Origin: a virus
Taxonomy: Duplodnaviria > Caudoviricetes
Direction: 5' to 3' (one strand)
Virus record (IMG/VR): IMGVR_UViG_2700989574_000004
Span: 18,729 to 82,728 of that record
Length of the DNA stretch: 64,000 nt
Below the pieces are notes generated by a model. The model saw nothing but the letters and a program-made list of their open reading frames with translations, had not been told where the DNA came from and ran no database searches. Below, piece by piece: positions 365-56,300 of the stretch. The stretch's first letter is position 1. Every line of letters starts with the position of its first letter. The translations under genes were made by a program, and so were the position numbers.

Positions 365-1042
365 TCAGTTACCGTATTGCGCCCGGAAATACGCTTTAAT
401 CGCCGCAATCTCTGCCGGTGTTTTCACCGAGTCGAAAATCATCACTTCCGAGTAATTGACGTTGTTGGCCGCCGTTGCCGCTAGGCTCAGTGGTGCATTC
501 TGATATGTAATGGCCGATGCACCGGTTACAGTCGCTGTGGCATCGTTAACATAGATGGTCTCAATGTCAGTAACCGGATCGTAATTCACGATAATCAGGT
601 CAATGCCGGATGATAGTGCTACACCACCCCGCTGCGTTGATTCCCCCGTTTTGTAGTAATACAACTTGTTATCCGTCTGCGCCTGAAGTCGCAGGTGGGG
701 ACCGCCGGGCAGGAACGTTGCCTGGGTTGTGTTATCGCGTTTAAATGCAAAAGCGTAGCAGTAGCCGTTTGTCGCATTGGCTGGAAACACATTTCCTGAT
801 GTTACACCACCATTCGCCGACAGGGCGCTCTTCATTGTTTTAATGCCATTCAGCGTAGACTCTGAAATAGCGGACCCTAGCGTGATAGCCATATCACCTG
901 CACGGTCGACCAGTGTTGATACCCGCCAGTCGAAGTAATGCGACGGGTCAAAGCGACACGTTGTGTCATCGCGCTCTGAATAGGTGGAAGCTATACCGCT
1001 GTTAACAGCCACAGGAATTTGCAGGAAAGTGGTTTTAGCCAT
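365..1042 (-). CDS. Hypothetical beta-rich protein after the fibre gene (possible lectin/LamG-like fibre partner)
   Basis: 225-aa ORF with RBS AAGGT, last gene before the end; C-terminal YSEVMIFDSVKTPAEIAAIKAYF resembles LamG-like domain ends. Confidence 0.65.
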   Translation of the reverse strand: MAKTTFLQIPVAVNSGIASTYSERDDTTCRFDPSHYFDWRVSTLVDRAGDMAITLGSAISESTLNGIKTMKSALSANGGVTSGNVFPANATNGYCYAFAFKRDNTTQATFLPGGPHLRLQAQTDNKLYYYKTGESTQRGGVALSSGIDLIIVNYDPVTDIETIYVNDATATVTGASAITYQNAPLSLAATAANNVNYSEVMIFDSVKTPAEIAAIKAYFRAQYGN

Positions 1043-1052
1043 TTTAGTTACC

Positions 1053-3053
1053 TTATTTTCTGAGAGATTGTACGGCGTAGTTCAGCAGGGCACGTTTTGC
1101 CTGGTAAGCGCCTATAATTCTGGCTCCCCGTGCGTTGGGGTGCGGGTCTGCCGGGTTGGTAGTGGAGAACGCGTAGCCATTCTGGAATGCAAAGTTTGAG
1201 TTTCGTATCAGGTCGCGAACATTAAATCCGAGCATTCCGTATTTAGTCTGGATAGCGTCATAAACCGCATCGCGTTTAATGTGATTGTCGCTGTACCAGC
1301 GTTCCAGAAAAACGGGCGCCCCCGGCAGCGCATCCTGTACCCGCTCCACAATGGCGCTGTAACCGGCCATAAAATCTGTATCTGACAGCGCGTAATCATT
1401 CTCGCCGAGATTGATAAACACCAGGTCAGCCGCAAAATACTGCATCCAGTATTTCTGGTACGAGGCCGTCTGATTCAGGTGATATGCCGCTGTTGCGCCT
1501 CCTCGTGCGTAACGAATGACGCGAACTCCGCCAGCAGAGTTAATGCAGTTGAAGCTAATCAGCGCAGGGTACCCTGACTGATTTACCCCGGAAGCTGGCG
1601 GTTCAATCTCAAGTGAAAATCGTCCCGTTGATGGGCCAAGCCCTTCAACGCGCACTATCTGGATTTCTTCTGAGCCCTCCGGCTGGTTTGTGATGGTCGC
1701 AGTCTGCCACTCCCCGGAACCCGCTGGCCCTGTGGTGCCATCATCATTCCGGTCTGTTGCACGAAAACGAAACTGACTGGAGGTTCCGGCTGCGCCGGTG
1801 CCGGTGAATCCGACCTCGACAACATCGTGTTGATAAATAGGGTTGCCGCGCGACGCATCTTTTACCCGGAAAAACAGATTAGTGCGGCCTGACCACGGAA
1901 CTAACGCGAAACTCAATGGCGCGCATTTTTTGCCGTATGGCTGATTATCCACCCATCCGCTATAGACCCGCTCCATGTTCAGCAGGTCGCGGGAGGCTGT
2001 ATTGTCGTTTGAGGGGGCGAAGTAGCCGATACCGCCATGACCTAGCCGCGCCGCAAACTGGCTGTACATGGCATCAATAGCTCCTAATCCTCCAGTTCCG
2101 CCAGTCAGTGAATCCCCCGGCCCGCACAGAATAACCAGATACCCACCGGTGTTCGCCCGCGCCTGCATGGCAATCAAATAATCAAGCATCCCGACTTCCG
2201 GCAGTTCAGAAGTGGTCTGATTGCTGCCGGAACCCATTGTCAGCAGTTGATTATCTGAGCCCAGGATCACAAACGGAGAAGGCGCGTATCCACGTAAAAT
2301 AGAGACGCCAGCATCCTGAAGGGTGTCTGTTGTTAAAAATGACAGCATCTGATTATCCGGCCCCAGCAGATACAGAGGTTTATCGCCGTATCCGAATTTA
2401 ATATCCGAGCCAGCCTCTGCCATTCTGTCTCGACCAAAATCCAGTTTCTGGAAATCTTTACCGACAATTTCAAACTCGTCGTTACCATAGCCCCGAAAAA
2501 ATTTTACACCACCCAACGTCCAGTTTGATGGCATAGAACGTCCGGTGGGCTCTAAAACCCCTGCATTATTTATATATTCATCGGACAGTGTAAAATTAGA
2601 TGGATTCGTTATCCATAATCGAGCCTGGTTGAGAATAGTTTTTGCCGCTACATTTTTATCTGCCGCGTCTATTGTTGCGAATTCTCGGGTTGTTCCTGTT
2701 ATTGCTCCCTGACCAGGCATCATCGCTGAGATAATCGCAACACCCGCTTTATTCAGGTAATAGGTAAATGAGGTTAAATCATCCGGCCCATCAGCAACAC
2801 GAAAAATTTTCCCGTCAGGAGTATTAGCCAGTCCTGATATCGTCCCATCAGGATCCGATTCTGTTTTGTAAAATGTATACTCACGGTAATCACTGGCTGA
2901 TTCTATCTGGTCTTTGAGCCAACGAGTCCTGTTAGCCAGTTGTTCAGCCTGAATATTATCAGGACCGCCCCGACCACCCAGCACAGGAGTATCCTTCTCA
3001 AGTTGATAAATATCATCAACCCATGTTGCTTGCTCAGGTAATTTACTGGTCAT
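1053..3053 (-). CDS. Tail fibre/tailspike with SGNH (GDSL) esterase domain
   Basis: N-terminal W..DIYQLE..TPVLGG..GPDN.QA.QLANRT.WLK fibre-docking motif; SGNH blocks GDSLT, RGG, LGEND, DPHP. Confidence 0.85.
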   Translation of the reverse strand: MTSKLPEQATWVDDIYQLEKDTPVLGGRGGPDNIQAEQLANRTRWLKDQIESASDYREYTFYKTESDPDGTISGLANTPDGKIFRVADGPDDLTSFTYYLNKAGVAIISAMMPGQGAITGTTREFATIDAADKNVAAKTILNQARLWITNPSNFTLSDEYINNAGVLEPTGRSMPSNWTLGGVKFFRGYGNDEFEIVGKDFQKLDFGRDRMAEAGSDIKFGYGDKPLYLLGPDNQMLSFLTTDTLQDAGVSILRGYAPSPFVILGSDNQLLTMGSGSNQTTSELPEVGMLDYLIAMQARANTGGYLVILCGPGDSLTGGTGGLGAIDAMYSQFAARLGHGGIGYFAPSNDNTASRDLLNMERVYSGWVDNQPYGKKCAPLSFALVPWSGRTNLFFRVKDASRGNPIYQHDVVEVGFTGTGAAGTSSQFRFRATDRNDDGTTGPAGSGEWQTATITNQPEGSEEIQIVRVEGLGPSTGRFSLEIEPPASGVNQSGYPALISFNCINSAGGVRVIRYARGGATAAYHLNQTASYQKYWMQYFAADLVFINLGENDYALSDTDFMAGYSAIVERVQDALPGAPVFLERWYSDNHIKRDAVYDAIQTKYGMLGFNVRDLIRNSNFAFQNGYAFSTTNPADPHPNARGARIIGAYQAKRALLNYAVQSLRK

Positions 3054-3056
3054 TTT

Positions 3057-3850
3057 CTAACCTCTATAAGTATATCTGCCGTTGTGTCTAATAGAACCGT
3101 TGTGTGTGATGCCGTTTAGTCTGTCGAACAAAACAATGCGCCCAAGTCGCCCCAGAAACTCATCATTGGATTTCTTACCGTCATACAAAATATTAGCTGT
3201 TGTTTCCAGCCCACTGATTTCTGTCTCAGTGTTTATTAATGTGAGTGTAGCAATGGGGTCTAATGACACTCTGTAAATTTCGACTAAAACAGGACGATTA
3301 TTTTCAGCTAAATTAATGCCTTCATAACGTAAAGAAAACTCTTCGGTTATGTTTTCAGCCAACGATAAAACCGTATTACCTGGGTGTTGGTAATCAACAA
3401 TGACGGGTTGTTTTTCGGGAGTCGAAAGAAAGGTTATCGCCCCCCACAACCTGTCAACAACATAATCATCACCATTGACCATGTCTTCTATAGAAACACC
3501 CCACACATTTGGATTTCGTAGCGTAATTCTGTCTCCGGCTTCGATTCCTTCAGGTAATATGTCCTGTGCATACACGTCTGGTATCTGGGATGTATTCTTT
3601 GCTTCAAGAAGAACTTTTAAGTTTTCCACTGAAAATTCATGCCAGGTTGATGTTATTTTCCCTTCCAGCGCGGTGATATAACGCTGAGAGTTAACCAGTC
3701 GTCCACCGACCGACGCGCGGGATTTTTTCTCTTCAAACTCCAGTTCAATATTCAGCGCCGAAACATCACCAACCCAACGCCAGGACAAAGCCTGACCCGC
3801 CGAATTTCGGCGAGCCAGGTATAATTTCCCTTGTCCGTAGTAGTAGTCAC

Positions 3851-3854
<4 letters not shown>
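3057..3854 (-). CDS. Second tail-tube-like protein (paralogue of 12974..13717) with C-terminal HNG repeats
   Basis: Collinear with the 247-aa tail protein (YYYGQGK.YL.RRN.AGQA, TSTW.E.S.ENL, LRYEGINLAEN, GLETTA, GR.GR); extra tail NGITHNGSIRHNGRYTYRG. Confidence 0.85.
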
Positions 3855-6137
<2,283 letters not shown>

Positions 6138-6151
<14 letters not shown>

Positions 6152-6600: not shown

Positions 6601-7431
6601 TCAGAATAATTTGATGATTTGATAAGGTGACTTGCCCGGCATATGAGGCTGGCCACCGTAGTTGAGAACGTTGTTGAATTTGGTGTTACAGGTCGAGATT
6701 GTGCGGTCACAGCCCGGATACAGGGTGACTGTCTGCCCGGTTTCCAGGCCCACAGAACCGCCGAACAGACCAAGCGTGCTCCCGTTCTGGGCCCGGAGTC
6801 CTCGCCGCTCGGTCACGCCATCGGAGATCCACTCCACGTAGCCGCCTGAGAACCAGTCGCCGGGCAACCCCTCCGGCATGTTGACGGTGATGCTGGCTCC
6901 GTCCAGTGAAGTGATAACCAGTCCGGCAATACCGAACTGTTGAGGAGAAATGCCGCAGTTATGGTCGTACAGCGAATACGGGCAGGCCCGGCCCCACGTC
7001 AGACGCAGGCCACTGCGGGTGAAGGTGCTGGCCAGGCTGGCGGTCAGTAACCGGCAGCGGTCTGTTGCTTCGCGCTTCATCTCGGTAATGGTGCCGATCC
7101 ACTCCGTCCTGAACTCCTGCTGCACGTCATCTATATGAAAGCGATGTATACGGATACGAACAGGGCTGGACGGCGGAATGTTTCTGAAGAGGGCCGCAAC
7201 CGGGTTTGATGCAGGTACGGTCACGTCGAGGCTGTCCCCAGCCCCCACGCTCAGACCGCTGTCGCTGATGGCCTGGCACTGCCAGAGTACAGGCTGTTGA
7301 GTCGCGTCTGTGGTGGTAATATCCCGATCCGCATTGGTATAGCGATAAAACCTCGTTTCACCGCGCGAGAACTCATACAGCGTAACCGGGCGGCCGTCGG
7401 CAGTAGAATACTCAAACTGATTCCAGCTCAT
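6601..7431 (-). CDS. BR0599/DUF2163-family tail protein (gpL-like, Cys-containing)
   Basis: C.YSLYD..C and YPGCDRT..TC..KFNN..NYGG.P motifs; start moved to MSWNQF. Confidence 0.85.
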   Translation of the reverse strand: MSWNQFEYSTADGRPVTLYEFSRGETRFYRYTNADRDITTTDATQQPVLWQCQAISDSGLSVGAGDSLDVTVPASNPVAALFRNIPPSSPVRIRIHRFHIDDVQQEFRTEWIGTITEMKREATDRCRLLTASLASTFTRSGLRLTWGRACPYSLYDHNCGISPQQFGIAGLVITSLDGASITVNMPEGLPGDWFSGGYVEWISDGVTERRGLRAQNGSTLGLFGGSVGLETGQTVTLYPGCDRTISTCNTKFNNVLNYGGQPHMPGKSPYQIIKLF

Positions 7432-8590
7432 CGCGTATCCCTCTGAATGTTGTTGAAATCTGAGCAAAACCATCGGCATCGGTGGCATGTTCCCATGTGA
7501 TATCGTCCGTGTTCTGACGGCAGAGCGTCATAAAGGAAACGGCCGCAATCTCTCCGATATCCGGGGTCTCACCGTCGAGAAAAAGGGTTTCGTGGTTTTC
7601 CTGGCGGATCGCCGACACAATCCGGCGGTAAACGTCTGAACCGTCCTGACACCGGATACGCAGATCCCGACGCCCGGAAACCACCCCATATTCACTGAAA
7701 CCGGCAACCTCAACATCCAGGGCATTGCCGCTGGCTGCCTGGGGGATGAAGTCCCGCGCCTGACTGGATACCCAGACAGCACGTTGACGGCCGCGCAGCC
7801 AGTACAGCAATTCGCGCAAGCGGGTCTGTGTCTCGCGGTTTGCTCGCGACCATACATGCTGCTGCATGATGAATGCTCGTCCCGCCGTATCGATACGGGC
7901 AGGAATGCCGTATTCATTATCCAGTTCCAGCATGAGGCGCTGGTATTCGGCCGTCAGGTCATCCACCCAGTCGGCGTCGTCGGCCAGTACAGGATGACCG
8001 CGATAGAGGGTAGAACCGGAAACGGCGGTAAAGGGGTTATGCGCTGACAGCTGGCACCGCATTTGTACGCGCATTACACTGTCTGTATGTCGGGTGATCG
8101 CCGGTACATCGGTAAAAAAGGCGGGCCGGAGAGGGTAAATCAGCGTGCCTGATGGCCACGCAGCTACGGGTTGACTGACAGTCACGCCATCGGATTCAAC
8201 AGACTGAACGGGCACAATCTCGGTACTGGCCATCATGCCGAAGCCGGATTTGAGCATCAGATTATCGCCCACAATGAAATCCCGCCCGGCCGTGGCCAGC
8301 GGGATAAACTGACTTCCGGCCGCAACCGGTGATAACAGCTCGGCCACATCAGGGAATACCGGCATATCCCAGATTGTACCACCGGCATGAAAAAGCTGGG
8401 TTTCCAGCGCACGCGCATCAGCATCACCCGCCAGCACCGTGAACTCGTACTGGCGACGCGGTGACAGACGGCGGGCAATCCGCTGTTCGGCCCCGCTCGG
8501 CGAAATCAGCACATCGGTCTTCCAGGACAGGGTTTCGGTGATACCGTCCGTCCAGTCTGGCTCCATCATAAAGGGGAGACGTTCGGCCAT
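7412..8590 (-). CDS. Distal tail protein
   Basis: 392 aa directly after the tape measure; ETLSWKTDVL.SPSGAEQR.A.R..PRR motif. Confidence 0.75.
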   Translation of the reverse strand: MAERLPFMMEPDWTDGITETLSWKTDVLISPSGAEQRIARRLSPRRQYEFTVLAGDADARALETQLFHAGGTIWDMPVFPDVAELLSPVAAGSQFIPLATAGRDFIVGDNLMLKSGFGMMASTEIVPVQSVESDGVTVSQPVAAWPSGTLIYPLRPAFFTDVPAITRHTDSVMRVQMRCQLSAHNPFTAVSGSTLYRGHPVLADDADWVDDLTAEYQRLMLELDNEYGIPARIDTAGRAFIMQQHVWSRANRETQTRLRELLYWLRGRQRAVWVSSQARDFIPQAASGNALDVEVAGFSEYGVVSGRRDLRIRCQDGSDVYRRIVSAIRQENHETLFLDGETPDIGEIAAVSFMTLCRQNTDDITWEHATDADGFAQISTTFRGIRDELESV

Positions 8591-11500
8591 TATTTCCCCC
8601 CCAGCATCTGTTTCAGCGTGGCTGAATTGTTCTTCACCCAGGTCATCATGACGCGGTTTCCGGGGGCGCTCTTAACCGCTTTATCCAGAACGTCATTCGG
8701 ATCGAGTACCAGATACTGCTGTAACACCGGCGCGTTACTGCCCCCGCCGGACTCACTGTCACTGCTGGAGTCCGGGGACTGATTGACCTGTTGTTGCCGC
8801 GAAATCCCCGGATCAGATACCAGACCGCCATCGGCAAACGCCCCCAGACGCCCGTTGTTGATTGCATGAAGAAAATCGACGCCATAGCGGTTAACCGCCG
8901 CAGCTTTGACAACAAACTCCCCGTCAGAAAGCCTGGCAGCGATACTGTCAGACGTTGCCGTACCGGGGCCGGAAATATGGCCACCGGTGGCGGCGGCCAC
9001 ACTGGCAGCAGCCCCGACACCTGAACTGGCACTGCTGGCGGCACTCGCTGACGCGATTGCCGCAGATAATGTCGCGGCTCCTGCGGCAAAGGCACCGCTA
9101 AGGGCCGTGGTGAGAGCGGTAACGCCGGATGTAAACGCGGCCGTGAAACCGGTCGTCATGGCCGTACTGCCCGCAGTGATGGAGGCTCCCATTGCTGTTG
9201 CACCGGCCGTTGAGGCTGTCGTGATGGCGGTGGCATAGGTTGCCGCACCGGCAGCATCAGTGGCGGTATCGGTGGCAGAGCTGACGGCAGACTCAGCAGC
9301 GCCGGTGGCCGCTTTCGCCCCCATACCAAACAATCCTTTCAGGCTGTCTGTGACGCTACCGAGCCCCTCCATAGCCATACCCGCCAGATTGCGGGAGGCG
9401 ACCTGGGCCATCGCGCTGGCCACCGATTTTGCCAGGTTCAGCACGGCATCACTCAGGTTTAACGTGCCATCAGCCAGGCCGTTAAGCGTGCTCTCCATCC
9501 CGTCCTGCAGGCCATCCTTAAAAGCTGTCGTCAGCTCATCCGTGGTGGACTTCAGGGTTAACAGCTCATTCTCCAGGCTGGTGAGCATCTCACGCATCTG
9601 ATCGCCGGTTTCACCGGGCAGCGTGGCCATCTGGCGCAACTGCGGCAGATAACCGGCGATTTTGTCGCCGACCTCCTGATGCAGGGCAACCAGTTGGCGA
9701 CGGCCGTTGAGTTCAGAGATAAGACCCGCCTGAACCTGAGCCTGGACGCTGCTCTCTTTCTGGCTGCGATACGCTTCCAGGTCATCAATACTCTTTTTGA
9801 GCGCGTCGGCCCGCACTCTGGCTTCCTGAACCGGCAGGAGTTTATCCAGCCAGGCCAGCCCTTCGGTATTGCCGGATTCGGTAAACTCTTTGCGCATTTC
9901 AGCAATACTGGCCCGGACTTCTGCCAGACCGCCGCCAAGTACATCACCGGTGGCTTTCAGGTATTGCGCCTGCAGCTGCGCGTTCCGGGTCGCGTTCGCA
10001 TCTGATTTCTCTTTCTGCTCACTGGCGGCGATAACAGCCAGCGCCGCTTCCGCCCGCGCTTTCAGCGCACCGGTCAGCCCCTTTTCCGCCAGCTCATAGG
10101 CCGATACCTGGGCTTTTGTTTTACCCACCGCCCAGGCCTGTTTTTCCAGCCCCTTAACATAGGTTTCACTGTTCTGTGCAGCAGACTTTGCCGCACGTGC
10201 AGCCGCTTCAGACTGCCGTTTGTTCTCTTTGGCCTGGTCGGTCTGTTTCTGCAGGTTAATCAGCTTTTCCAGACTTTCCCGCAGTTTGTCGATATCAGCA
10301 GGAGCCTGACCAGCTGCCAGTGCGGCCGCAATGGTTTTGTCCCGCAGTTGCTCCAGTTGCTGAACGGCCGTCATGGTGGCATCGGCCAGCTCTTTTTCCA
10401 GTTTGGGGCGGAGCTTATCGGCTTCAGCGCTCAGCTCAGCAAAGCTCTGCTCGCTTTTGGCCATCTGCGCAGCCGCCTCATCCATCCAGCGAATAGGCCC
10501 GGCGTTCTGCAGTTCGGTCAGCACATCGCGCAGGGTTTTACCGCTGGCGGTTGGCGCATCGAGGGCTCGGGCAAGGCGGTTTTCCAGCTCGTCGGAAAGG
10601 GTATCCTGGGCGGTGCTGAGGTTATCGAATTTGGGCGTCAGTTCATCAATCTGTTTCTGAACCTCTTCCAGCTTGTTCGCCAGGTACATGATCCCCAGCC
10701 CGGAGGGGGCCGGACTGCTCATCAACCCTTCAATCTGCTGTTTGAGCATGGCGGCCTGACTCTGCAGGTCGCTCAATTTCTTGCTGTCCTGGGTCAGTAC
10801 ATCCGCATTGCTGCGTTGCTGGGTCAGCACATCACCGGTGCTGGCGGAGGCTTTGAGGCGACCCTGAGCATCAATCAGGGCATCGGTTTTCTGGCGCTGA
10901 TCCTCCAGTGTCTGGATGGTCTGCTGATGCTGCTGTGCCAGCGCCGCTTCAGACTCCTGGGCCGATGCATACGCCGCACTCAGCCCACCCACGGCCAGCG
11001 TGACGCCGGTGATGGCCAGCCCCATCGGGCCACCCAGCAGTCCCATCAGGCCGGAGCCCAGACGACTGAAGGCCGATGTGGATGCTCTGGCCACACCCAG
11101 CGCTTTCTCCGCGACAGTCTGTCGAACCAGCGCGGCAGTGACCGCATCCTCCGCTTTCGCCCGTGCGCCTGGTGCGGAAATACCGGTTTTTGCCCTGATA
11201 GCCTGCGCCTGTGCGGCTGCCAGCGCCGCTTTCGACTCCGCGTATTCAGCCTCCGCAAGTTGCAGCGTCTCGATACGGTCAGCGCGTGCTGCCTGTGTGG
11301 CGCTGACCAGGGCGGCAACCTTACGGCCGCCCATCACCACAGCCAGCGCAATCGCAGCAGTCGTCAGGGTGGACAGGTTACCCGCCAGCCCCGAAATGAC
11401 CGCCGCTATAGCCTTTGAGGCACCCAGCGCATCGTTTGTCCCGCCGACGAACTCCACCCAGGCATTGGCCATTTCCGTGGAGGCACGACCAATGGTGAGC

Positions 11501-12306
11501 GGCATCTGGGAGAATTCACGATCAATATCCGCCGCTCCGTCTTTCAGGGCTTTGAAGACCACATCCGTGGTCAGCATTCCCTGTTCCGCCATCGCCCGCA
11601 GCTCGCCTCGCGTTTTACCCAGCGACGTCTGCAGCATCTCCATGATGCGGGGCATCTGCTCGGAAACAGAGTTAAATTCCTCGCCCCGGAGCGTGCCGGA
11701 AGCCAGCCCCTGGCTTAACTGGATGATCGCATTGGTGGACTCTTCCGCCGTGGCACCGGAAACAATTGCTGCTTTGTTGATGACGCTGGTCACCTGCAGC
11801 AGCTCGGTCTGGGTGGCGCTGCCTTTCAGGGATCGCGCCATGCGGGTGTAAAGTTCAGCGGTGGAGGAAATGCGCTGGCCGGTTTCATTGGCCAGTGCAA
11901 TCACCGATTTGAACGTGGTGCCAGCCTGTTCATTCGACGTTGACACCAGGCGGATACGTGCCGCCAGGCTGGTGTATTCATCCGAAATATGCGCCAGTCC
12001 CGTGAGTGCCCCTCCGCCGAGCGCCAGACCGGTGACCGTACCTGCGATGGTTTTCAGGCGGTTAAGCTGTCCCTCGACAACGCTTATCTCACTGCCGGTT
12101 TTGGCCAGTTTCTGACTGGCGCTGTCCGCTGAACGTCCGACGGTTCCCAGACCTGCTGCTGCCGCATTACCGGACTGGCCAAGCTGACTGCCGCTGCGGG
12201 CGGTATTATTCAGGGAGGTTTCGAGTTGAGTGAGGGCGTTCTGAGCGCTTTTTAAATCGGCCTGTATACGGAGGCGCAGCTCCAGATTGCCATTTCCGCT
12301 TGCCAT
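8590..12306 (-). CDS. Tape measure protein (inner phage)
   Basis: ~1238 aa Ala-rich helical; QLSQGLASGTLRGEEFNSV tape-measure motif; C-terminal GPGT.TSDSI.ARLSDGEFVV. Confidence 0.92.
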   Translation of the reverse strand: MASGNGNLELRLRIQADLKSAQNALTQLETSLNNTARSGSQLGQSGNAAAAGLGTVGRSADSASQKLAKTGSEISVVEGQLNRLKTIAGTVTGLALGGGALTGLAHISDEYTSLAARIRLVSTSNEQAGTTFKSVIALANETGQRISSTAELYTRMARSLKGSATQTELLQVTSVINKAAIVSGATAEESTNAIIQLSQGLASGTLRGEEFNSVSEQMPRIMEMLQTSLGKTRGELRAMAEQGMLTTDVVFKALKDGAADIDREFSQMPLTIGRASTEMANAWVEFVGGTNDALGASKAIAAVISGLAGNLSTLTTAAIALAVVMGGRKVAALVSATQAARADRIETLQLAEAEYAESKAALAAAQAQAIRAKTGISAPGARAKAEDAVTAALVRQTVAEKALGVARASTSAFSRLGSGLMGLLGGPMGLAITGVTLAVGGLSAAYASAQESEAALAQQHQQTIQTLEDQRQKTDALIDAQGRLKASASTGDVLTQQRSNADVLTQDSKKLSDLQSQAAMLKQQIEGLMSSPAPSGLGIMYLANKLEEVQKQIDELTPKFDNLSTAQDTLSDELENRLARALDAPTASGKTLRDVLTELQNAGPIRWMDEAAAQMAKSEQSFAELSAEADKLRPKLEKELADATMTAVQQLEQLRDKTIAAALAAGQAPADIDKLRESLEKLINLQKQTDQAKENKRQSEAAARAAKSAAQNSETYVKGLEKQAWAVGKTKAQVSAYELAEKGLTGALKARAEAALAVIAASEQKEKSDANATRNAQLQAQYLKATGDVLGGGLAEVRASIAEMRKEFTESGNTEGLAWLDKLLPVQEARVRADALKKSIDDLEAYRSQKESSVQAQVQAGLISELNGRRQLVALHQEVGDKIAGYLPQLRQMATLPGETGDQMREMLTSLENELLTLKSTTDELTTAFKDGLQDGMESTLNGLADGTLNLSDAVLNLAKSVASAMAQVASRNLAGMAMEGLGSVTDSLKGLFGMGAKAATGAAESAVSSATDTATDAAGAATYATAITTASTAGATAMGASITAGSTAMTTGFTAAFTSGVTALTTALSGAFAAGAATLSAAIASASAASSASSGVGAAASVAAATGGHISGPGTATSDSIAARLSDGEFVVKAAAVNRYGVDFLHAINNGRLGAFADGGLVSDPGISRQQQVNQSPDSSSDSESGGGSNAPVLQQYLVLDPNDVLDKAVKSAPGNRVMMTWVKNNSATLKQMLGGK

Positions 12307-12330
12307 GTTGTACCGCTCCGGAAAGGTGAC

Positions 12331-12354
12331 AAAACCCCTCATCGAGGGGTTATT
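12331..12354 (-). terminator. Hairpin/terminator between tail chaperone and tape measure
   Basis: AACCCCTCGATGAGGGGTTTT on the - strand. Confidence 0.45.
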
Positions 12355-12590: not shown

Positions 12591-12974
12591 ATTCAGCGCT
12601 TTTACCAGTTTTTCGAGCGCCGGTCTGATGGCGTTGCGGGTAAAAAAACTGGCATTCACCCCCCACCAGGTCAGCAGCAGACTCTCACTGTCTTCCCCGG
12701 TCAGGCCGGAGACCCATTCAACCGACTGGCCACAGGAAATCGCCACCGCCTGCATCACGGATGGCCAACGCTCACCCAGCACATCAAACAGTTCCTCAAC
12801 CGAAATCTCGGCATTAGGGGCAGAGTTCATGGCATCACAAAGGCCAGAACTGATATCCCGGAGGGGATGGCGGTGCTGCAGTTGCTCTGCCAGCGTGTAC
12901 TCATGCACCGTAACCTGGACGCCATTCACGTTCAGCGTCCGGTCTGGCAGCAGAATGTTCAGTTCATCGGCCAT
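12504..12974 (-). CDS. Tail assembly chaperone (gpG-like)
   Basis: 156 aa between tail tube and TMP; LLLTWWGVNASFF motif. Confidence 0.75.
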   Translation of the reverse strand: MADELNILLPDRTLNVNGVQVTVHEYTLAEQLQHRHPLRDISSGLCDAMNSAPNAEISVEELFDVLGERWPSVMQAVAISCGQSVEWVSGLTGEDSESLLLTWWGVNASFFTRNAIRPALEKLVKALNQQAGRTSSPASSTTDTSSETSGITPPAS

Positions 12975-13717
12975 CAGTCACTCCCGACGTGGATCACGCG
13001 CCCGTAGCGACCAAACTCGGCATCCTCCGGACGTTCGGTATCCAGCAGAACGGCGGCGGTGGTCTCCAGTCCGGGCAGTGAGGTATCGGTGTTAATCAGG
13101 CTCAATGCCGACACCGGGTCGTACTGCACTTTGTACAGCTCCAGCACTACCGGTGCGCCGTTCTCTGCCAGGTTGATGCCTTCATAGCGCAGGAACAGGT
13201 CAACCGGGCTGGCAGTAAACATGGAGGTGTTAATGCTGCTGGCATAGGAGTAATTGACGCTGGGCGGTGTCGCTGGCGTGGTGATGAACTCAATCGCCCC
13301 AAACTTCAGGTCAACGGTGTAATCCTCACCCAGTGTCAGACCGGTAATGATGACCGCGCTCACGTTGTGATGCGCCAGCAGAACACGATCCCCGGCGACA
13401 ATACCGGCTGGCAGGACTTCGCCGGTCACGGTTCCGGCAGGCACCACCACTTTTTCGCCATACAGCAGAACAGCCAGGTTTTCCGGCGAATGTTCATACC
13501 AGGTGGACGTGACCGAACCATCCTTACTGGTGCTGATGCGACGAACCGGCGCACGATGGCCGCTGTAGGATTCTTTATGGGTGAAAGACTCCGTTGTCAG
13601 CGCCACTTCAAGCGAGTCAACATCACCAATCCAGCGCATGGTGACAGCCTGTCCGGCGTCATTGCGGCGGCCGAGGTAAACTTTGCCCTGGCCATAGTAA
13701 TAAGTTTCTGGGGTCAT
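12974..13717 (-). CDS. Major tail tube protein (inner phage)
   Basis: 247 aa, canonical position after the tail terminator and before chaperone/TMP; no sheath gene present. Confidence 0.8.
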   Translation of the reverse strand: MTPETYYYGQGKVYLGRRNDAGQAVTMRWIGDVDSLEVALTTESFTHKESYSGHRAPVRRISTSKDGSVTSTWYEHSPENLAVLLYGEKVVVPAGTVTGEVLPAGIVAGDRVLLAHHNVSAVIITGLTLGEDYTVDLKFGAIEFITTPATPPSVNYSYASSINTSMFTASPVDLFLRYEGINLAENGAPVVLELYKVQYDPVSALSLINTDTSLPGLETTAAVLLDTERPEDAEFGRYGRVIHVGSD

Positions 13718-34710: not shown

Positions 34711-34861
34711 AGTGCAAAAATCCCCGCATAATTTTTAAAAAGTTTCGATTTTCCGGCCAGCCGTGCAAAAGCGGCTCGCTCGTCTCAATCCCTTGTCAAT
34801 CAAGGCGTCCCGCGTTTCGTCGCGCTCGATCCATGCATGCAGAAACGATCACCTCCCCACA
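34711..34861. repeat. Repressor-proximal transposon end (attL-like) with three TGCA-A-tract sites
   Basis: AGTGCAAAAA 34711, CGTGCAAAAG 34762, CATGCAGAAA 34836, terminal ACA. Confidence 0.6.
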
Positions 34862-35221
34862 GGTGTCTGGACGGTTTGCTATGGTCACACAGGTAAAGAC
34901 ATCATGCTCGGCAAAACCTATACCGAGGCAGAGTGTCGGGCGCTACTAAATAAAGACCTGAATACCGTCGCCAGGCAGATCAACCCTTACATCAAAAAAC
35001 CGATCCCAGAAACTATGCGTGGGGCTTTGTACTCGTTCGCCTATAACGTCGGAACTGGTAACTTCCAGACCTCCACACTGCTTCGCAAAATCAACCAGGG
35101 TGACCCTAAAGGAGCGTGCGATCAACTGCTCCGCTGGACCTATGCCAAAGGTAAGCAGTGGAAAGGACTTATTACCCGGAGGGAAGTTGAGCGTGAAGTT
35201 TGTTTATGGGAGCAAAGATGA
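34862..35221 (+). pseudogene. SAR endolysin, 3' fragment
   Basis: [14 protein letters not shown]...[15 protein letters not shown] continues the 115..256 fragment in frame once the insert and one repeat copy are removed. Confidence 0.92.
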
Positions 35222-35568
35222 GTCGCTTAACCGCCGTTATCATCGCTATAACAATCCTGCTGGCCTCTAACGTGATTTCGTGGCGCTCAGGCTGGAGTTC
35301 TCACGCTGATCACATCAATGCTCAAGCTTCAAAGAAGAGAGAGAAGGCCGAGAGTACCATTAAGCCTGTAGAGGAAAAGGCCGCTACTGCTAACGAAGCG
35401 GGTAAGGTCATCTACAAAACAATAACCCGTGACGTGGTGAAATATGTTCAGTCTCCGAATCGTATTGTATGCAGGTTTGATGATGATGCTGTGCAGCTGC
35501 GTCAGCGCGCCATCGATGCTGCCAACTCCATCCCCGGATTTGATGAGCCCGCCGTGCAAAGCAAGTGA
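35218..35568 (+). CDS. Rz: i-spanin
   Basis: N-terminal TM, follows endolysin with ATGA overlap. Confidence 0.8.
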
Positions 35569-35686
35569 CGCCGGGAAGGATAGCGATGAAGATTTACAGT
35601 CTGACATAGAAACCGCTCAGTGCCTACGCCAGCTCCGTTTGGATAAGTATCGCTGGCAGGTGTACTATCGGGCGGTGAGTAAGTAA
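35444..35686 (+). CDS. Rz1: o-spanin lipoprotein (overlapping)
   Basis: MMMLCSC lipobox-like, Pro-rich [16 protein letters not shown]; start uncertain. Confidence 0.7.
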   Translation: MFSLRIVLYAGLMMMLCSCVSAPSMLPTPSPDLMSPPCKASDAGKDSDEDLQSDIETAQCLRQLRLDKYRWQVYYRAVSK

Positions 35687-35836
35687 CAGGTATATCACAT
35701 GAAATAAGTGGCCTTAAGTGAACAAAAGAATCTGAAAACAAGACATTCAAGCTTTCAGCATCAAAATGTTTGTATCTAATTCAGGTGGGGTCATGCACTA
35801 TAGGATCTCAAACCACTCTTAACTAAGTAGCCACTC

Positions 35837-36034
35837 ATGACAGTAAACTTACTACCACAACTTCCATGCGGTTATCGTTACGGCATTGAGCGCTCGATCC
35901 GGCCCCACACTGATGCGGAATTTTTTCCGCCACAAGGGTGTGTTATCAAATCTGTCAACTTTGGGGATGGTGTGGTTATTTGTGTGCCCATCCAATGGTA
36001 CGTTAAACAATTAGATTTATGGGTCACTGTCTAA
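35837..36034 (+). CDS. Hypothetical 65-aa moron
   Basis: Isolated ORF in AT-rich region after the lysis cassette; weak RBS. Confidence 0.45.
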   Translation: MTVNLLPQLPCGYRYGIERSIRPHTDAEFFPPQGCVIKSVNFGDGVVICVPIQWYVKQLDLWVTV

Positions 36035-36211
36035 GGAACCATCGAATAATATGTTAGTTACTGGTGGCTAACGGATCATTGCGCTAAAAAAATAAGCACA
36101 GACGTCTGTTGTTCTTTTTGAATGTTCTTGAGAATAGCGAATTACTAGTCTAATCAGCTATTCATCCATTTAAATGATATCGATGGCTGAAATGAAGCTA
36201 TCCTCACGTTA

Positions 36212-36343
36212 CCACTGCCAGCCAACACCGAAACGGCAGAGGTCATTTAGCAAGCAGAAAATCTCTCCCGGGTGGCTCCTGAGAGATTTTAGATTTCTAA
36301 CTGGTACTAACCAAAGGTCGCATATCTATGCGGCCTTTTTTTT
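36212..36343 (+). ncRNA. Candidate structured small RNA ending in an intrinsic terminator
   Basis: CTGCC/GGCAG stem, AAAATCTCTC/GAGAGATTTT stem with CCGGGTGGCTCCT loop, then AAAGGTCGCATA-TC-TATGCGGCC-T8. Confidence 0.35.
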
Positions 36344-36449
36344 AGCTGGTTTAATGGCTTGAGGAGATCCTGGACGAGAATATGTGACAAAAAAATCAGG
36401 GGAAACAGGAATGCCCTGTGAGCGGATTTACGAATCAGGGAGAACGTCC

Positions 36450-36493
36450 ATCCCCATAAAGGGATAAAATGCTGCTTATCCCTTTATGGGGAT
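36450..36493. repeat. Perfect 18-bp inverted repeat, 8-nt spacer
   Basis: ATCCCCATAAAGGGATAA / TTATCCCTTTATGGGGAT. Confidence 0.9.
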
Positions 36494-36505
36494 AAAGTCT
36501 GTATT

Positions 36506-36529
36506 GCCTCGCATCTGCGGGGCTTTTTT
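36506..36529 (+). terminator. Intrinsic terminator
   Basis: GCCTCGCA-TC-TGCGGGGC-TTTTTT. Confidence 0.65.
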
Positions 36530-36547
36530 ATTCGTAAAGATAAAACG

Positions 36548-36709
36548 ATGAAGAGCTTAAAAATTGTATCCATAGGCGGGAGGCTGGTGGCGATTGAGTA
36601 TGACGGTTTGTCATGTGCATCGCTGCCAGTTTCAGAGCTCCCCATCAATGGTTCAGCTTTAACTCTCCCTCAATTCATGCTCGAGGATGTGTATGCCACC
36701 ACGCGCTAA
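36548..36709 (+). CDS. 53-aa hypothetical, partial paralogue of 37052..37324
   Basis: MKSLKIVSIGGRLVAIEYDGLS...; below the ORF-track cutoff, overlaps the HNH start. Confidence 0.5.
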   Translation: MKSLKIVSIGGRLVAIEYDGLSCASLPVSELPINGSALTLPQFMLEDVYATTR

Positions 36710-37055
36710 ACGACCTTGCCGGCACAGAGGATGCGCGACTGTGACCAATGATGTCGGTGGATACTGTGAGATGCATCGGCAGCAACACGCTGGTGATGGC
36801 TGGCGTAACTACCAGCCCGGAAAAACTCGGCAGGAACGTGGTTATGGTCGACCGTGGGAAATTAAACGGGCCCGTATCATGAAGAGGGATAAATACCTTT
36901 GTCAGAACTGCAGGCGAGACGGTATTGCCACGAAAGCCTCAAGTGTCGACCACATCATTCCTAAAGCTCATGGCGGTACCGATGATGACTTTAATCTGGA
37001 GTCATTGTGCTGGACCTGCCACAGCAAGAAAACAGCAACAGAGAGAACCCGATGA
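36693..37055 (+). CDS. Packaging-associated HNH endonuclease (HK97 gp74-like)
   Basis: RGYG..W, RDKYLCQNC, VDHIIPKAHGGTD...NLESLCWTCH. Confidence 0.92.
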   Translation: MPPRAKRPCRHRGCATVTNDVGGYCEMHRQQHAGDGWRNYQPGKTRQERGYGRPWEIKRARIMKRDKYLCQNCRRDGIATKASSVDHIIPKAHGGTDDDFNLESLCWTCHSKKTATERTR

Positions 37056-37324
37056 AGAGTTTCAAAATTGAATACGTTGATGGCGTTTTGACCGTTCTGG
37101 AGACGGATGGTCAGTCACGAATGAATGAAGCCGTGCATGGCATCCATTTTGAGCACGTCCAGGGCGGCCGCCCACTGCTGAAACTGACGATTGCGCATGA
37201 TATTGCACCGGCACCGGCTGCTGAGTCGGCTCAGGAACCTTTAGTGGGTGAGCTGGTACAGGAGCAACAATCTCCGCTTCCAGGCGGTCGTCGTTTCCGC
37301 CATCGTAGGGGAGGTAAGCAATGA
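37052..37324 (+). CDS. Hypothetical protein
   Basis: 90 aa from MKSFKI, ATGA-coupled to HNH. Confidence 0.7.
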   Translation: MKSFKIEYVDGVLTVLETDGQSRMNEAVHGIHFEHVQGGRPLLKLTIAHDIAPAPAAESAQEPLVGELVQEQQSPLPGGRRFRHRRGGKQ

Positions 37325-37752
37325 TGTATCAACGCACGGATCTGACGCTCTCCATGTTCTATGCATCCAGTGCTGATGCAGACGGGAACAAAGTGGCTAC
37401 GTTGACGATGCAGGTAATTGCGGCAGAGGTTGGAGCCGTCCAGACCAGCCAGCTGCGATGTATCACCGATAGCGCGAAGAAAAAAACGTATAGCGTAGGT
37501 GAACAATCTGTCAGTAATGGTTCCGATCCGTTACTGGTCGCGATTGAGAATTACTGGCGTCAGAGTACGGATGTCGTCGTTAAAGGATTGATCGCCGAGG
37601 TGACCGACTTCATCGCAGGGAACATCAACTCAGTCAGCACCTGGATCGGTCAGTTTGGGATGAAGGTGTTCGAGAACCAGCCATTAGATGAACGGCTACC
37701 AGAAAGCGTACTGCAGGCCGATGGAGGCTCCGCTACCGCGACAGAATCCTGA
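37321..37752 (+). CDS. Hypothetical protein
   Basis: 143 aa, GGAGG RBS, coupled. Confidence 0.75.
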   Translation: MMYQRTDLTLSMFYASSADADGNKVATLTMQVIAAEVGAVQTSQLRCITDSAKKKTYSVGEQSVSNGSDPLLVAIENYWRQSTDVVVKGLIAEVTDFIAGNINSVSTWIGQFGMKVFENQPLDERLPESVLQADGGSATATES

Positions 37753-53372: not shown

Positions 53373-56300
53373 ATGGCAAATAACATAATTAAAGGGCGCA
53401 AGGGTGGCGGCTCAAAGCAGCGTACACCGACGGAACAGCCGGATGATTTACAGTCCGTTGCGAAAGCCAAAATTCTGCTCGCATTAGGTGAGGGTGAATT
53501 TGCAGGTGGTTTAACCGGGGAAGATATTTATCTTGATGGCACTCCGCTTGAAAATGCTGATGGTTCGCAAAACTTCAGTGGCGTGTCTTGGGAATTTCGC
53601 CCTGGCACGCAGGCACAGACTTATATTCAGGGTATTCCCGGCACTGAAAATGAAATCAGTGTAGGAACGGAAGTTTCCAGCAAGACAGCCTGGACCCATA
53701 CCTTTACTAATACCCAGCTTTCTGCCGTTCGTGTCCGCCTGAAATGGCCGTCCCTGATGAAACAGGAAGATGACGGCGACGTGGTGGGCAATACCGTCAA
53801 GTATGCGATTGACCTGCAGACCGACGGCGGCGCCTGGCAGACGGTGCTGGAAACCGCTGTCACGGGTAAAACCACCTCCGGTTATGAGCGGAGCCATCGT
53901 ATTGATCTTCCCCAGGCCGGCAGTACCTGGACGCTACGCCTGCGTAAAATCTCTCCGGATGCAAACAGTGTCAAAGTTGGCGACGTGATGACGCTGCAGA
54001 GCTATACCGAAGTGATTGACGCGAAGCTGCGTTATCCCAACACCGCGCTGCTTTATATCGAGTTCGACTCCAGCCAGTTTAATGGCTCCATTCCGCAAAT
54101 TTCCTGTGAGCCGCGTGGGCGCGTGATTCGTGTGCCGGATAACTACAATCCGGAAACCCGCGAATATACCGGCGTCTGGACCGGCGGGTTTAAATGGGCC
54201 TGGACGGATAACCCGGCCTGGATCTATTACGACATTGTTATAGCTGACCGTTTTGGTCTCGGTAATCGTCTGAGCAGCGCCAATATTTCGAAATGGACGT
54301 TGTACCAGATTGCACAGTACTGCGATCAGCTGGTTCCTGACGGGCGCGGTGGTGACGGCATGGAGCCGCGCTATACCTGTAACGTCTATGTCCAGGAACG
54401 CAACGATGCTTACACCGTGCTGCGAGACTTTGCCGCCATTTTCCGGGGCATGACCTGCTGGAACGGTGAGCAGATTGTTGTGCAGGCTGATATGCCGCGT
54501 GATGTCGATTTTACCTATACGCGCGCCAATATTATCGGCAAACCCCGTTATTCGAGCAGCAGCAGCCAGGTTCGGTACACCAACGCCCTGGTTTCCTGGT
54601 CTGATCCGGATAATGCTTATGCTGATGCAATGGAGCCGGCATTTATCCCGGAACTGGTTTCCCGCTACAGTTTTAACCAGCTCGAAATGACGGCGATTGG
54701 CTGTACGCGCCAGAGCGAAGCCCACCGTAAGGGGCTGTGGGGCATACTGACCAACAATAAGGACCGCATGGTCGAAATTGATGTCGGGCTGGACGGTCGC
54801 ATTCCTCAACCCGGTTATATCATTGCCCTGGCGGATGAGTTGCTGGCCGGACGGGTCAACGGCGGGCGAATCAGCGCGGTGAATGGCCGGGTGATTACGC
54901 TGGATCGTGATGTGGATGCCAAACCTGGCGACCGCCTCCAGCTAAACCTGCCATCCGGGATCTCACAGAGCCGGACTATTCAGGCTGTTAACGGACGCCG
55001 GCAGATTACGGTCACAACGGCGTACAGTGAGACACCAGAACGGGAATGCGTCTGGGCCATTGAATCCGATGACCTCTTCCTGCAGCAGTACCGGGTTACA
55101 GGGGTAAAAGAGAACAGCGATGCCACCCTCACGATCACCGGCGTGGCACATGACCCGGATAAATTCCCCCGCATCGATACCGGCGCTATTATCGACCAGC
55201 GCCCGGTTAGCGTATTGCCGGCGGGCAACCAGTCACCTCCTGACGATATTGTCATCACATCCCGCTCGGTCGTGAATCAGGGGATCAGCGTCGAAACGAT
55301 GCAGGTTAACTGGTCAGCGGTCAGCGGCGCTATTGCCTACGAGGCGCAGTGGCGCCGTAACGACGGGAACTGGATTAATGTGCCGCGCAGCTCGACCACC
55401 TCGTTTGAGGTCAGCGGCATTTATGCCGGTCGTTACCTGGTTCGCGTCCGTGCGATCAATGCGGCGGAGATCTCGAGCGGCTGGGCGTATTCCGAAGAGA
55501 AAACCCTGACCGGCAAGGTCGGCGAGCCGCTGGCACCGCTGGCGCTGGCAACCCGTTCGCTGGTTCATGGGGTCCAGGTTAGCTGGGAGTTCCCGACCGG
55601 CTCCGGGGATACTCTGCGCACGGAACTGCAGTACAGCAAAAACCAGGACGGCAGTGCGCCAATGCCGTTATCAGACGTAGCCTATCCGGGGAAAAGCTAT
55701 CAGCAGATGGGCCTCAGTATGGGCGCCGAATTCTGGTACCGGGCGCGCCTTGTGGATCGTCTTGGCAATGAAAGCCCGTGGACCGGCTGGGTCCAGGGGA
55801 TAGCCAGCGATAACTTTGATGACTACTACGAAAACCTGACCGACGCGATCAAGGATACGGATGCCTGGGAGGAAACGCAGCGTACCATTAGCGAAACGCA
55901 GGAAGGTATCCGCAATACGCAGCAGGAACTGGAGCAGACCGCTGAAGAGCTGCGTCAGGAAGCCGCAGATCAGGCGAAGCAAGTCAGCCAGGATATTGAT
56001 GCATCTGCGAAAAGCATCACTGCTGATGTTGACGGAAAGCTCTCTGCCGTGAATAAAACCATCACGGATGAGCTTACCTCGGTAAATGAGTCTCTCGATT
56101 CTGGTCTGGCTCAGGCAAACAAGGGGATTCAGGAGGCAAAATCCGCCGTCGCTGATGCGAATCAGCAGATAGCAATTTTGAGCAAGTCGCTGGCCGACGG
56201 CGATGCCGCATTGAATGCGCAGATTAAAACTGCCGAGAATGGCCTGAAGCAGTCGTTGTCTCAGGTCAACACCACGTTAACCAATGCGGTTAAGCAGGAA

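Follow-up and report, generated by a model that had tools for sequence, protein, structure and literature searches.

The DNA analysed here (the window) comprises 64,000 nucleotides (nt) of the IMG/VR record IMGVR_UViG_2700989574_000004 (positions 18,729-82,728 of this 82.7-kb provirus record) and contains a Mu-type transposable prophage with two tail tube protein (TTP) genes, one for the major tail protein TTP1 (12974..13717 (-), 247 amino acids (aa), PHROG 807) and one for a paralogue, TTP2 (3057..3854 (-), 265 aa), with a proposed C-terminal fibre tether. We consider it probable that TTP2 is a tube-type ring sitting on the distal tail protein (Dit), and that its C-terminal tails tether the myophage-type fibre encoded downstream. 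According to this proposal, TTP2 would form a putative hexameric ring that is the first tube ring atop Dit, as is p140 in T5, and its flexible 23-residue tail would be a tether of the same kind as proposed for the P2 gpI-family proteins, binding the adaptor (residues ~1-55) of the SGNH-esterase fibre, a trimer, whose gene directly follows. With one tail per fibre trimer, the ring could hold up to six fibres, and the TTP2 system would replace the Dit arm and the gp47/gp48 side fibres of JBD30. The tether role of the TTP2 tail is well supported by sequence comparison; the formation of the ring, its position, its stoichiometry and the binding of the tail to the adaptor are what we infer from the data presented below.

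TTP2 is a paralogue of the tail tube protein with an added C-terminal tail

The initial annotation of the window described TTP2 as a full-length, collinear paralogue of TTP1 with roughly 40% identity, an added C-terminal stretch and a gene located 9 kb away from that of TTP1, between tail tip and fibre. Pairwise alignment by BLASTP bore this out: the two proteins are collinear over residues 4-241 with a single gap (E 6e-71), and 106 of 238 residues are identical (45%), the earlier estimate by eye being slightly low. The spacing between the two genes is 9.1 kb, and TTP2 is located between the hub gene, with which it overlaps by 4 nt, and the fibre gene, from which it is separated by 3 nt. Both proteins belong to PHROG 807, 'major tail protein with Ig-like domain' (3.7e-58 over residues 1-242 for TTP2 and 8e-77 for TTP1), and residues 3-241 of TTP2 match JBD30 gp44 (phmmer, E 5.3e-28), i.e. 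TTP2 matches the profile of the PHROG 807/gp44 tube type over its full length. The clusters of homologues in the protein database bear the precomputed label PF27730; the Pfam scan itself returned no family for TTP1 or TTP2 (for TTP2, none at E up to 0.1).

The tube body of TTP2 (residues 1-242; 3129..3854 (-)) is followed by 23 residues that are missing from TTP1 (residues 243-265; 3060..3128 (-)). Their sequence is FDRLNGITHNGSIRHNGRYTYRG, the final part being GITHNGSIRHNGRYTYRG, and they include the double motif HNGSIRHNG (3078..3104 (-)) with a period of 6, which sequence comparison also found in the C-termini of gpI-family proteins. In the AlphaFold2 (AF2) model of TTP2, based on 18 sequences, the body is that of a tube protein (mean predicted local distance difference test score (pLDDT) 77, predicted template modelling score (pTM) 0.56) and residues 243-265 appear as a low-confidence coil (pLDDT 66/52/46 over blocks). 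The best Foldseek match of this model was the JBD30 tube protein (8rk3_f, E 2.6e-15), followed by the tube proteins of YSD1 and Chi, and the elements of the tube fold, namely the beta-sandwich, the long hinge loop and the decoration domain, are present, with template modelling scores (TM-scores) of ~0.46-0.5. The model indicates that TTP2 retains the tube-protein fold. We take TTP2 to be a virion tail protein, and its conserved core motifs point, indirectly, to a probable hexameric tube-type ring.

The type of TTP2 tail covaries with the type of fibre adaptor

The TTP2 tails are of two kinds, carrying either a double (H/Y)(N/D)G motif with a period of 6 or a ..GE..TIYP motif. The double motif occurs in variants such as ..ITHNGxIxHNGxYTHRG, ..LTYNGxAxYDGxYxYRGK and ..ITYDGxIDFDGxYxFAY. 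A survey of gene neighbourhoods showed the long tube copy immediately next to the hub, in the order hub-TTP2-fibre, in 18 of 32 genome loci. Across the TTP2 loci, the two kinds of tail were paired with two kinds of fibre. The double-motif tail was followed by an IYQLE-type fibre, W..(I/V)YQ(L/I)E..D.V.GG..N....LA.RT.(Y/W)LK, in 14 of 14 loci, and in 4 of 4 loci the fibre after the tail ..IYTT....GE..TIYPK had an N-terminus of the P2 gpH type; this count leaves out L011, which is cut, L019, for which no fibre open reading frame (ORF) is shown, and L031, in which the TTP2 gene is split. The fibre of the window (1053..3053 (-), 666 aa, assigned by PHROG fibre families and Pfam Lipase_GDSL_2) is of the IYQLE type: the motif IYQLE..PVLGG...QLANRT, reported for its N-terminus in the initial annotation, is present in the translation, where residues 1-55 (2889..3053 (-)) form the adaptor W..IYQLE..PVLGG..N...QLANRT.WLK, as delimited by sequence comparison.

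The same peptides terminate proteins of contractile-tailed phages

The initial annotation also stated that such fibres belong to phages with contractile tails and that the baseplate proteins encoded upstream of them carry similar H/D-N/D-G repeats, and our searches confirmed both points. The first 75 aa of the window fibre, used as tblastn query, matched 39 phage records, mostly from P2-like and BcepMu-like myophages. Among 15 INPHARED contexts, not counting the two TTP2 phages, 12 had the double motif at the end of the ORF that directly precedes the IYQLE fibre, e.g. ..MRYNGAAHYDGQYNHGSS in BcepMu gp51 and ..IRHNGTAVRNGQYSRG.. in vB_HM795. A Pfam scan of ten of the upstream proteins (nine from IYQLE contexts plus that of Cartapus, which precedes a gpH-type fibre) identified eight as Tail_P2_I proteins, with the motif located beyond the domain; the other two were a T4 gp15-like tail terminator of RsoM2USA_406 and a protein of Mulvp2_68 without Pfam family. 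The tail of TTP2 is common to gpI.

The second type of TTP2 tail has its counterparts as well, since the gpI proteins encoded before gpH-type fibres carry ..GEEITIYP.. (Cartapus, RE2010) or ..GEIILIKPR (Mannheimia phage). Both peptides occur as a tandem pair, ..GDEVSVYP.. or ..GEVIDIYP.. and then ..YDG...(H/F)DG.., on the gpI of the P2-like Klebsiella prophages ST512-KPC3phi13.2 (L038:3397-3996) and ST13-OXA48phi12.1 (L050:891-1496), and both fibre types are encoded in ST512-KPC3phi13.2 and in ST437-OXA245phi4.1 (L039). A scan of IMG/VR with a degenerate DNA pattern of the adaptor yielded, among the matches listed, 80 loci that were used, 79 of them with an adaptor fibre ORF and 72 with a visible upstream ORF. 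The upstream protein was gpI-like according to BLASTP against gpI bodies in 53 of these 72 (39 with the strict pattern and 14 with variants evident by eye) and TTP2 in none.

For P2, a preprint (10.64898/2026.09.14.750843) describes the C-terminus of gpI as flexible from R153 and proposes it, on the basis of a low-resolution map and structure predictions, as tether of the gpH trimer, with gpI and two gpH chains linked in the model by a beta-sheet 'rope'. Similarly, Tail_P2_I figures as a fibre adaptor in a catalogue of contractile injection systems (PMC12923769). These comparisons suggest that the myophage data supply independent support for a tether function of the tail. A profile search with the adaptor alignment against solved structures produced weak matches to RecA repeat constructs only, of a kind expected by chance, and the whole fibre gave a single weak lipase match (E 0.51), i.e. 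no solved structure of the adaptor was found by sequence.

Three kinds of these upstream proteins are worth describing. The protein of the Ralstonia jumbo phage RsoM2USA_406 (L053:669-1481; T4-gp15_tss, 1.2e-40; PHROG 227, tail terminator/sheath stabiliser) ends with the double motif ..LYYDGEADYDGVYQSG.. and is directly followed by an IYQLE-type fibre, which may represent a mounting of the same tether at the neck end. In the Enterobacter phage Mulvp2_68, a 190-aa protein encoded directly after the tape measure gene (L049:929-1501; PHROG 384, 'virion structural protein') ends with ..YYDGEFLYNGAVNH.. and precedes an IYQLE-type fibre, as another scaffold for the tether. Finally, most of the intervening proteins of ~150 aa that are found directly upstream of some fibres (e.g. 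in L061, L070 and L088) end with ..G.WTI(I/L)F; their representative in Bise (L048:1044-1487; PHROG 5417, unknown function) lies between a gpI-like gene and the fibre, and its C-terminal part resembles, by eye, the start of a gpH-type fibre.

TTP2 is an old paralogue under purifying selection

Exactly 2 of the 240 phage records with a homologue carry two copies of the tube protein, Kp4852-3 and Pseudomonas phage VW-6B, and both share the order hub-TTP2-fibre with the window. In VW-6B (L001), genes 36 and 44 are both tube genes and both are annotated as 'putative tail sheath protein' despite a non-contractile tail module of the JBD30 type. A search of a large protein collection gave 192 proteins at E up to 0.001, and the following counts cover the 120 clusters listed: 102 were long forms, with the strict double motif in 90, a variant of it in 3, the IYP pattern in 8 and a variant of that in 1, and the remaining 18 were without extension or were fragments. 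A short tube copy was located ~9.4 kb upstream of the long one in 16 of the 18 long-copy loci; L004 and L013, where the DNA upstream of the hub is not an intact phage tail module, showed none. Fusions between tube protein and fibre, judged by 'longer' lengths, were not found among 2797 candidates, which is weak evidence.

In a tree of 74 tube proteins, calculated from the body columns only by a 'quick' method, all 36 long forms were on one side of a single branch (SH-like approximate likelihood ratio test (SH-aLRT) 97), nested among short forms. The Orbaceae/Gilliamella prophages have a TTP1 that is very distant on this tree and a TTP2 inside the clade of the long forms. In the window, the GC content is 43% for TTP2 (40% at third codon positions, GC3) and 44.5% for the fibre adaptor, as compared to 58% (GC3 66%) for TTP1. 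Between the window and Kp4852-3, the synonymous divergence (dS) is 1.06 for TTP2 versus 0.084 for TTP1, and the ratio of nonsynonymous to synonymous divergence (dN/dS) of TTP2 is 0.09, i.e. TTP2 is under purifying selection. A recent duplication in place was ruled out by the contrast in GC content, the difference in dS and the single long-form clade that includes Orbaceae. The cassette is foreign in origin, and the family tree together with the GC and dN/dS data therefore characterises TTP2 as an old, selected paralogue travelling with the fibre cassette. The second copy in Orbaceae ESL0727 (L031:9974-10793) is split into two ORFs of 162 and 114 aa, probably because of an assembly error or because this prophage copy is decaying and has suffered a frameshift.

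Position of TTP2 in the tail and alternative explanations

We mapped the alignment of TTP1 and TTP2 on the domain map of the JBD30 tube as described by Valentova et al. 2024 (PMC11445458). The two proteins are identical at 22/35 positions in the N-terminal sandwich, at 37/73 in the C-terminal sandwich and at 5/5 in the head-facing loop L1, and only at 4/21 in the tip-facing hinge loop (residues 40-60 of TTP2; 3675..3737 (-)), which is the most diverged part and contains 2 of the 3 family-specific columns, i.e. those conserved within but differing between TTP1 and TTP2. In JBD30, this loop is reported to contact the next ring towards the tip (PMC11445458). The Dit protein was short (369-410 aa) in 21/21 TTP2 loci with visible Dit; in loci without TTP2 it was long (560-598 aa) in 11/13 and short in 2/13. 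The short Dit is without the N-terminal part of ~170-200 residues that wraps the gp47/gp48 fibres in JBD30, and TTP2 and the long Dit arm never occurred together in the loci compared. Because of the divergence of the hinge loop, this mutual exclusivity, the position of the gene and the precedent of T5 p140, we place TTP2 as first tube ring on Dit; a ring at the junction between tube and tip, as for T5 p140, is the most likely position. The hub C-terminus had been considered as docking site of the fibre and was ruled out, as hub C-termini are not conserved among TTP2 loci.

Several observations weigh against this reading. TTP2 keeps its decoration domain, whose residues 86-163 align with those of TTP1 without deletion and with 27/78 identities, and the gp15-like protein of RsoM2USA_406 makes a tether at the head-proximal end of a tail possible. 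The AF2 model is moderately confident (pLDDT 77, pTM 0.56), with Foldseek TM-scores of about 0.46-0.49. Of the 1703 six-frame ORFs of at least 80 aa from the window and L001-L035, 16 have the strict motif within their last 35 aa and all 16 are TTP2, yet the pattern was written after the sequences had been seen and this ratio is a measure of specificity without formal probability. Tail and adaptor adjoin on the DNA and hence are inherited together, and the 18/18 covariation rests on few independent events because the tree needs only 3 label changes (minimum 2). In three of the 15 INPHARED contexts (ST405-OXA48phi1.1, Bise and Bm1), the adjacent ORF is without motif, with a looser motif in the wedge protein one or two genes upstream in ST405-OXA48phi1.1 and Bise; and in 19/72 of the IMG/VR matches listed, another protein, mostly of ~150 aa, lies directly upstream of the fibre.

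The retained decoration domain, along with the whole tube core, and the RsoM2USA_406 terminator, which bears the same tether and thus shows that the peptide is not bound to the tip, would be compatible with TTP2 tethering the fibre elsewhere in the tail, either as head-proximal ring with neck or whisker fibres or scattered among the TTP1 rings. We regard this as unlikely, since the TTP2 gene is flanked by those for hub and fibre, with an overlap into the hub gene, since TTP2 and the long Dit arm are mutually exclusive, and since loop L1 is identical to that of TTP1 while the hinge loop differs, the opposite of what a head-proximal ring would predict. It is also quite unlikely that TTP2 does not form a tube ring at all but is present in few copies (e.g. 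three) on the outside of hub or Dit, in place of the JBD30 gp54 tripod. Such an arrangement would fit the gene slot directly after the hub, in which JBD30-type phages encode gp54, and the threefold symmetry of the JBD30 baseplate. Yet the most conserved tube motifs, YYYGQGK and LRYEGINLAE, as well as the full-length hinge loop are kept under strong purifying selection, and ring or stacking contacts are favoured because this retention is hard to explain otherwise.

A further explanation takes the shared tail as a linked passenger, with the fibre bound to hub or Dit and TTP2 serving tail assembly only, as tube initiator or chaperone. Adjacency alone can indeed yield covariation, and the independent switches are few, but the same peptide is carried by the unrelated scaffolds gpI, gp15-like protein, Mulvp2_68 protein and TTP2, always just before the same adaptor. 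In addition, P2 gpI itself is proposed as a tether in the P2 preprint (10.64898/2026.09.14.750843), and the hub C-termini lack conservation; we therefore judge this explanation very unlikely. Finally, TTP2 as a redundant copy or one in decay, or as a decoy for host defences that sense the tube, for which the presence of DSR2-bound tube proteins among the remote Foldseek matches and the split Orbaceae copy (L031) could be cited, is extremely improbable given the dN/dS of 0.09, the intact frames in the 102 long-form clusters listed and the conservation of position and tail.

The reading as a tube-type ring on Dit whose tails hold the fibre thus upholds the two halves of the initial proposal, a specialised ring presenting a docking peptide, to different degrees: the docking part is strongly supported by comparison, through the same peptide on gpI and the concerted switch of tail and adaptor, and co-assembly of the ring is suggested by the pattern of core and hinge conservation, the gene position and the exclusion of the Dit arm.

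The element and its tail module

The Mu-like prophage extends over ~257-34860 (-) of the window and is characterised by a MuA-type transposase (HTH_Tnp_Mu_1, Mu-transpos_C), a MuB-like AAA protein, an S24 repressor, Portal_Mu, Mu F, Mu-like protease I and a gpT capsid protein. The closest phage record is the Klebsiella phage Kp4852-3, with 95-97% DNA identity over most of the element. The tail of the prophage is of the non-contractile JBD30/D3112-like type, with genes homologous to those of Casadabanvirus JBD30. Downstream of TTP1, the tape measure gene (8590..12342 (-)), assigned by gene order and by the annotation of the VW-6B homologue, adjoins the gene for the short Dit (7412..8590 (-)) with no gene in between. 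This Dit aligns with residues 177-565 of JBD30 gp49 (E 5.5e-70) and is without the N-terminal arm (domains I-II). The protein corresponding in position to the JBD30 upper baseplate protein gp50 (6601..7488 (-); PHROG 778) was assigned by gene order with MP22, and the baseplate hub (3851..6151 (-)) is homologous to residues 3-714 of JBD30 gp53 (E 8e-147), its last ~30 residues being rich in Pro and Glu. No gp54-type receptor-binding protein follows the hub in the window, and the fibre matches no JBD30 chain.

The SGNH/GDSL hydrolase region of the fibre comprises residues 506-646 (1116..1538 (-); Pfam PF13472, 3.3e-08, above the curated cut-off), and its translation shows a GDSLT and a GENDY motif. 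C-terminal parts homologous to that of the window fibre occur in Klebsiella prophages with contractile tails, e.g. ST405-OXA48phi1.x. The last gene of the prophage arm (365..1042 (-), 225 aa; PHROG 19416, unknown function) may code for a fibre accessory.

The Mu-like prophage is inserted within a lambdoid prophage. Positions 1-257 and 34861-37724 of the window are contiguous in Klebsiella phage Kp4865-4 (16216-16472 and 16467-19939 of that record), and the hexamer AGGTGT is present at both junctions (252-257 and 34861-34866), which fits a 5-bp target duplication with one more base in common. Since positions 1-257 match annotated holin genes of other lambdoid phages, the insertion is located at or just after the holin gene. 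In the tail region of this flanking lambdoid prophage, a 3020-aa ORF (53373-62435 (+)) follows the probable tape measure gene, an ORF of 1128 aa.

Discussion

The anchoring of side fibres on non-contractile tails is known chiefly from the T5 and lambda groups. It must differ beyond the T5-like phages because p140 and p132 are, according to Linares et al. 2023 (PMC10038345), confined to these phages. TTP2 offers a concrete answer for one widespread group of Mu-like prophages, with members in Klebsiella, Serratia, Citrobacter, Gilliamella and Pseudomonas. Moreover, the rule that the type of tail predicts the type of fibre adaptor can improve annotation, as illustrated by the 'tail sheath' labels in VW-6B, and can guide structural work on fibre attachment and on the movement of cassettes between phage morphotypes. 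More tentatively, and with some doubt on our part, the double (H/Y)(N/D)G and ..GE..TIYP peptides might be portable, self-sufficient 'plugs' for two fibre 'sockets' that have been grafted on unrelated scaffolds, i.e. the gpI wedge protein, a T4 gp15-like terminator, a duplicated tube protein and the Mulvp2_68 protein. If so, fibre cassettes would be freely exchanged between tails of the two types, contractile and not, and only the ring bearing the plug would determine where a fibre sits on the tail.

The attachment strategy had initially been regarded as undescribed. This does not hold for its components, which have precedents in T5 p140 and P2 gpI, but the combination of a duplicated tube ring and a gpI-type tether in one protein looks new: our literature searches, the coverage of which did not extend to most subscription papers, returned no described tube paralogue with a gpI-type fibre tether. 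Extra rings with a tube-like fold at the junction of tube and baseplate are also described for T4 gp54 and gp48 (PMC10038345); their proposed role is the initiation of tube and sheath, and a fibre tether is not known for them.

Compared to JBD30, the window encodes a homologous tube protein, Dit and hub, and both belong to the same type of transposable phage. Valentova et al. 2024 (PMC11445458) give one tube gene for JBD30, in contrast to TTP1, TTP2 and a myophage-type fibre in the window. JBD30 uses a long Dit arm to hold the pilus-binding gp47/gp48 fibres and docks its gp54 receptor-binding trimers on the hub C-terminus (PMC11445458), whereas the window has an armless Dit and a fibre without a match to any JBD30 chain.

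T5 p140 is a duplicated tube protein whose single ring is inserted between Dit and the last tube ring; the C-terminus of p140 touches the p132 collar, by which the side fibres (pb1) are anchored, and the authors present p140/p132 as a landmark of T5-like phages only (PMC10038345). Like p140, TTP2 arose by duplication of a tube protein and has its gene among those of the tip. However, p140 is 9% identical to its tube protein and has lost the Ig-like domain (PMC10038345), as opposed to 45% identity and a retained decoration domain for TTP2. Furthermore, p140 anchors fibres via a separate dodecameric collar (PMC10038345), and TTP2 would carry the tether itself; in the window, the hub, TTP2 and fibre genes follow each other without a collar gene in between, although no search aimed at p132 was made.

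With P2 gpI, TTP2 shares a flexible C-terminal peptide encoded directly upstream of the fibre, both types of peptide being common to the two proteins and each occurring with the same type of adaptor. The scaffolds are unrelated, as TTP2 is without Tail_P2_I (PF09684) and has 0 Pfam matches, and gpI is a wedge protein of contractile baseplates, whereas TTP2 belongs to a non-contractile tail.

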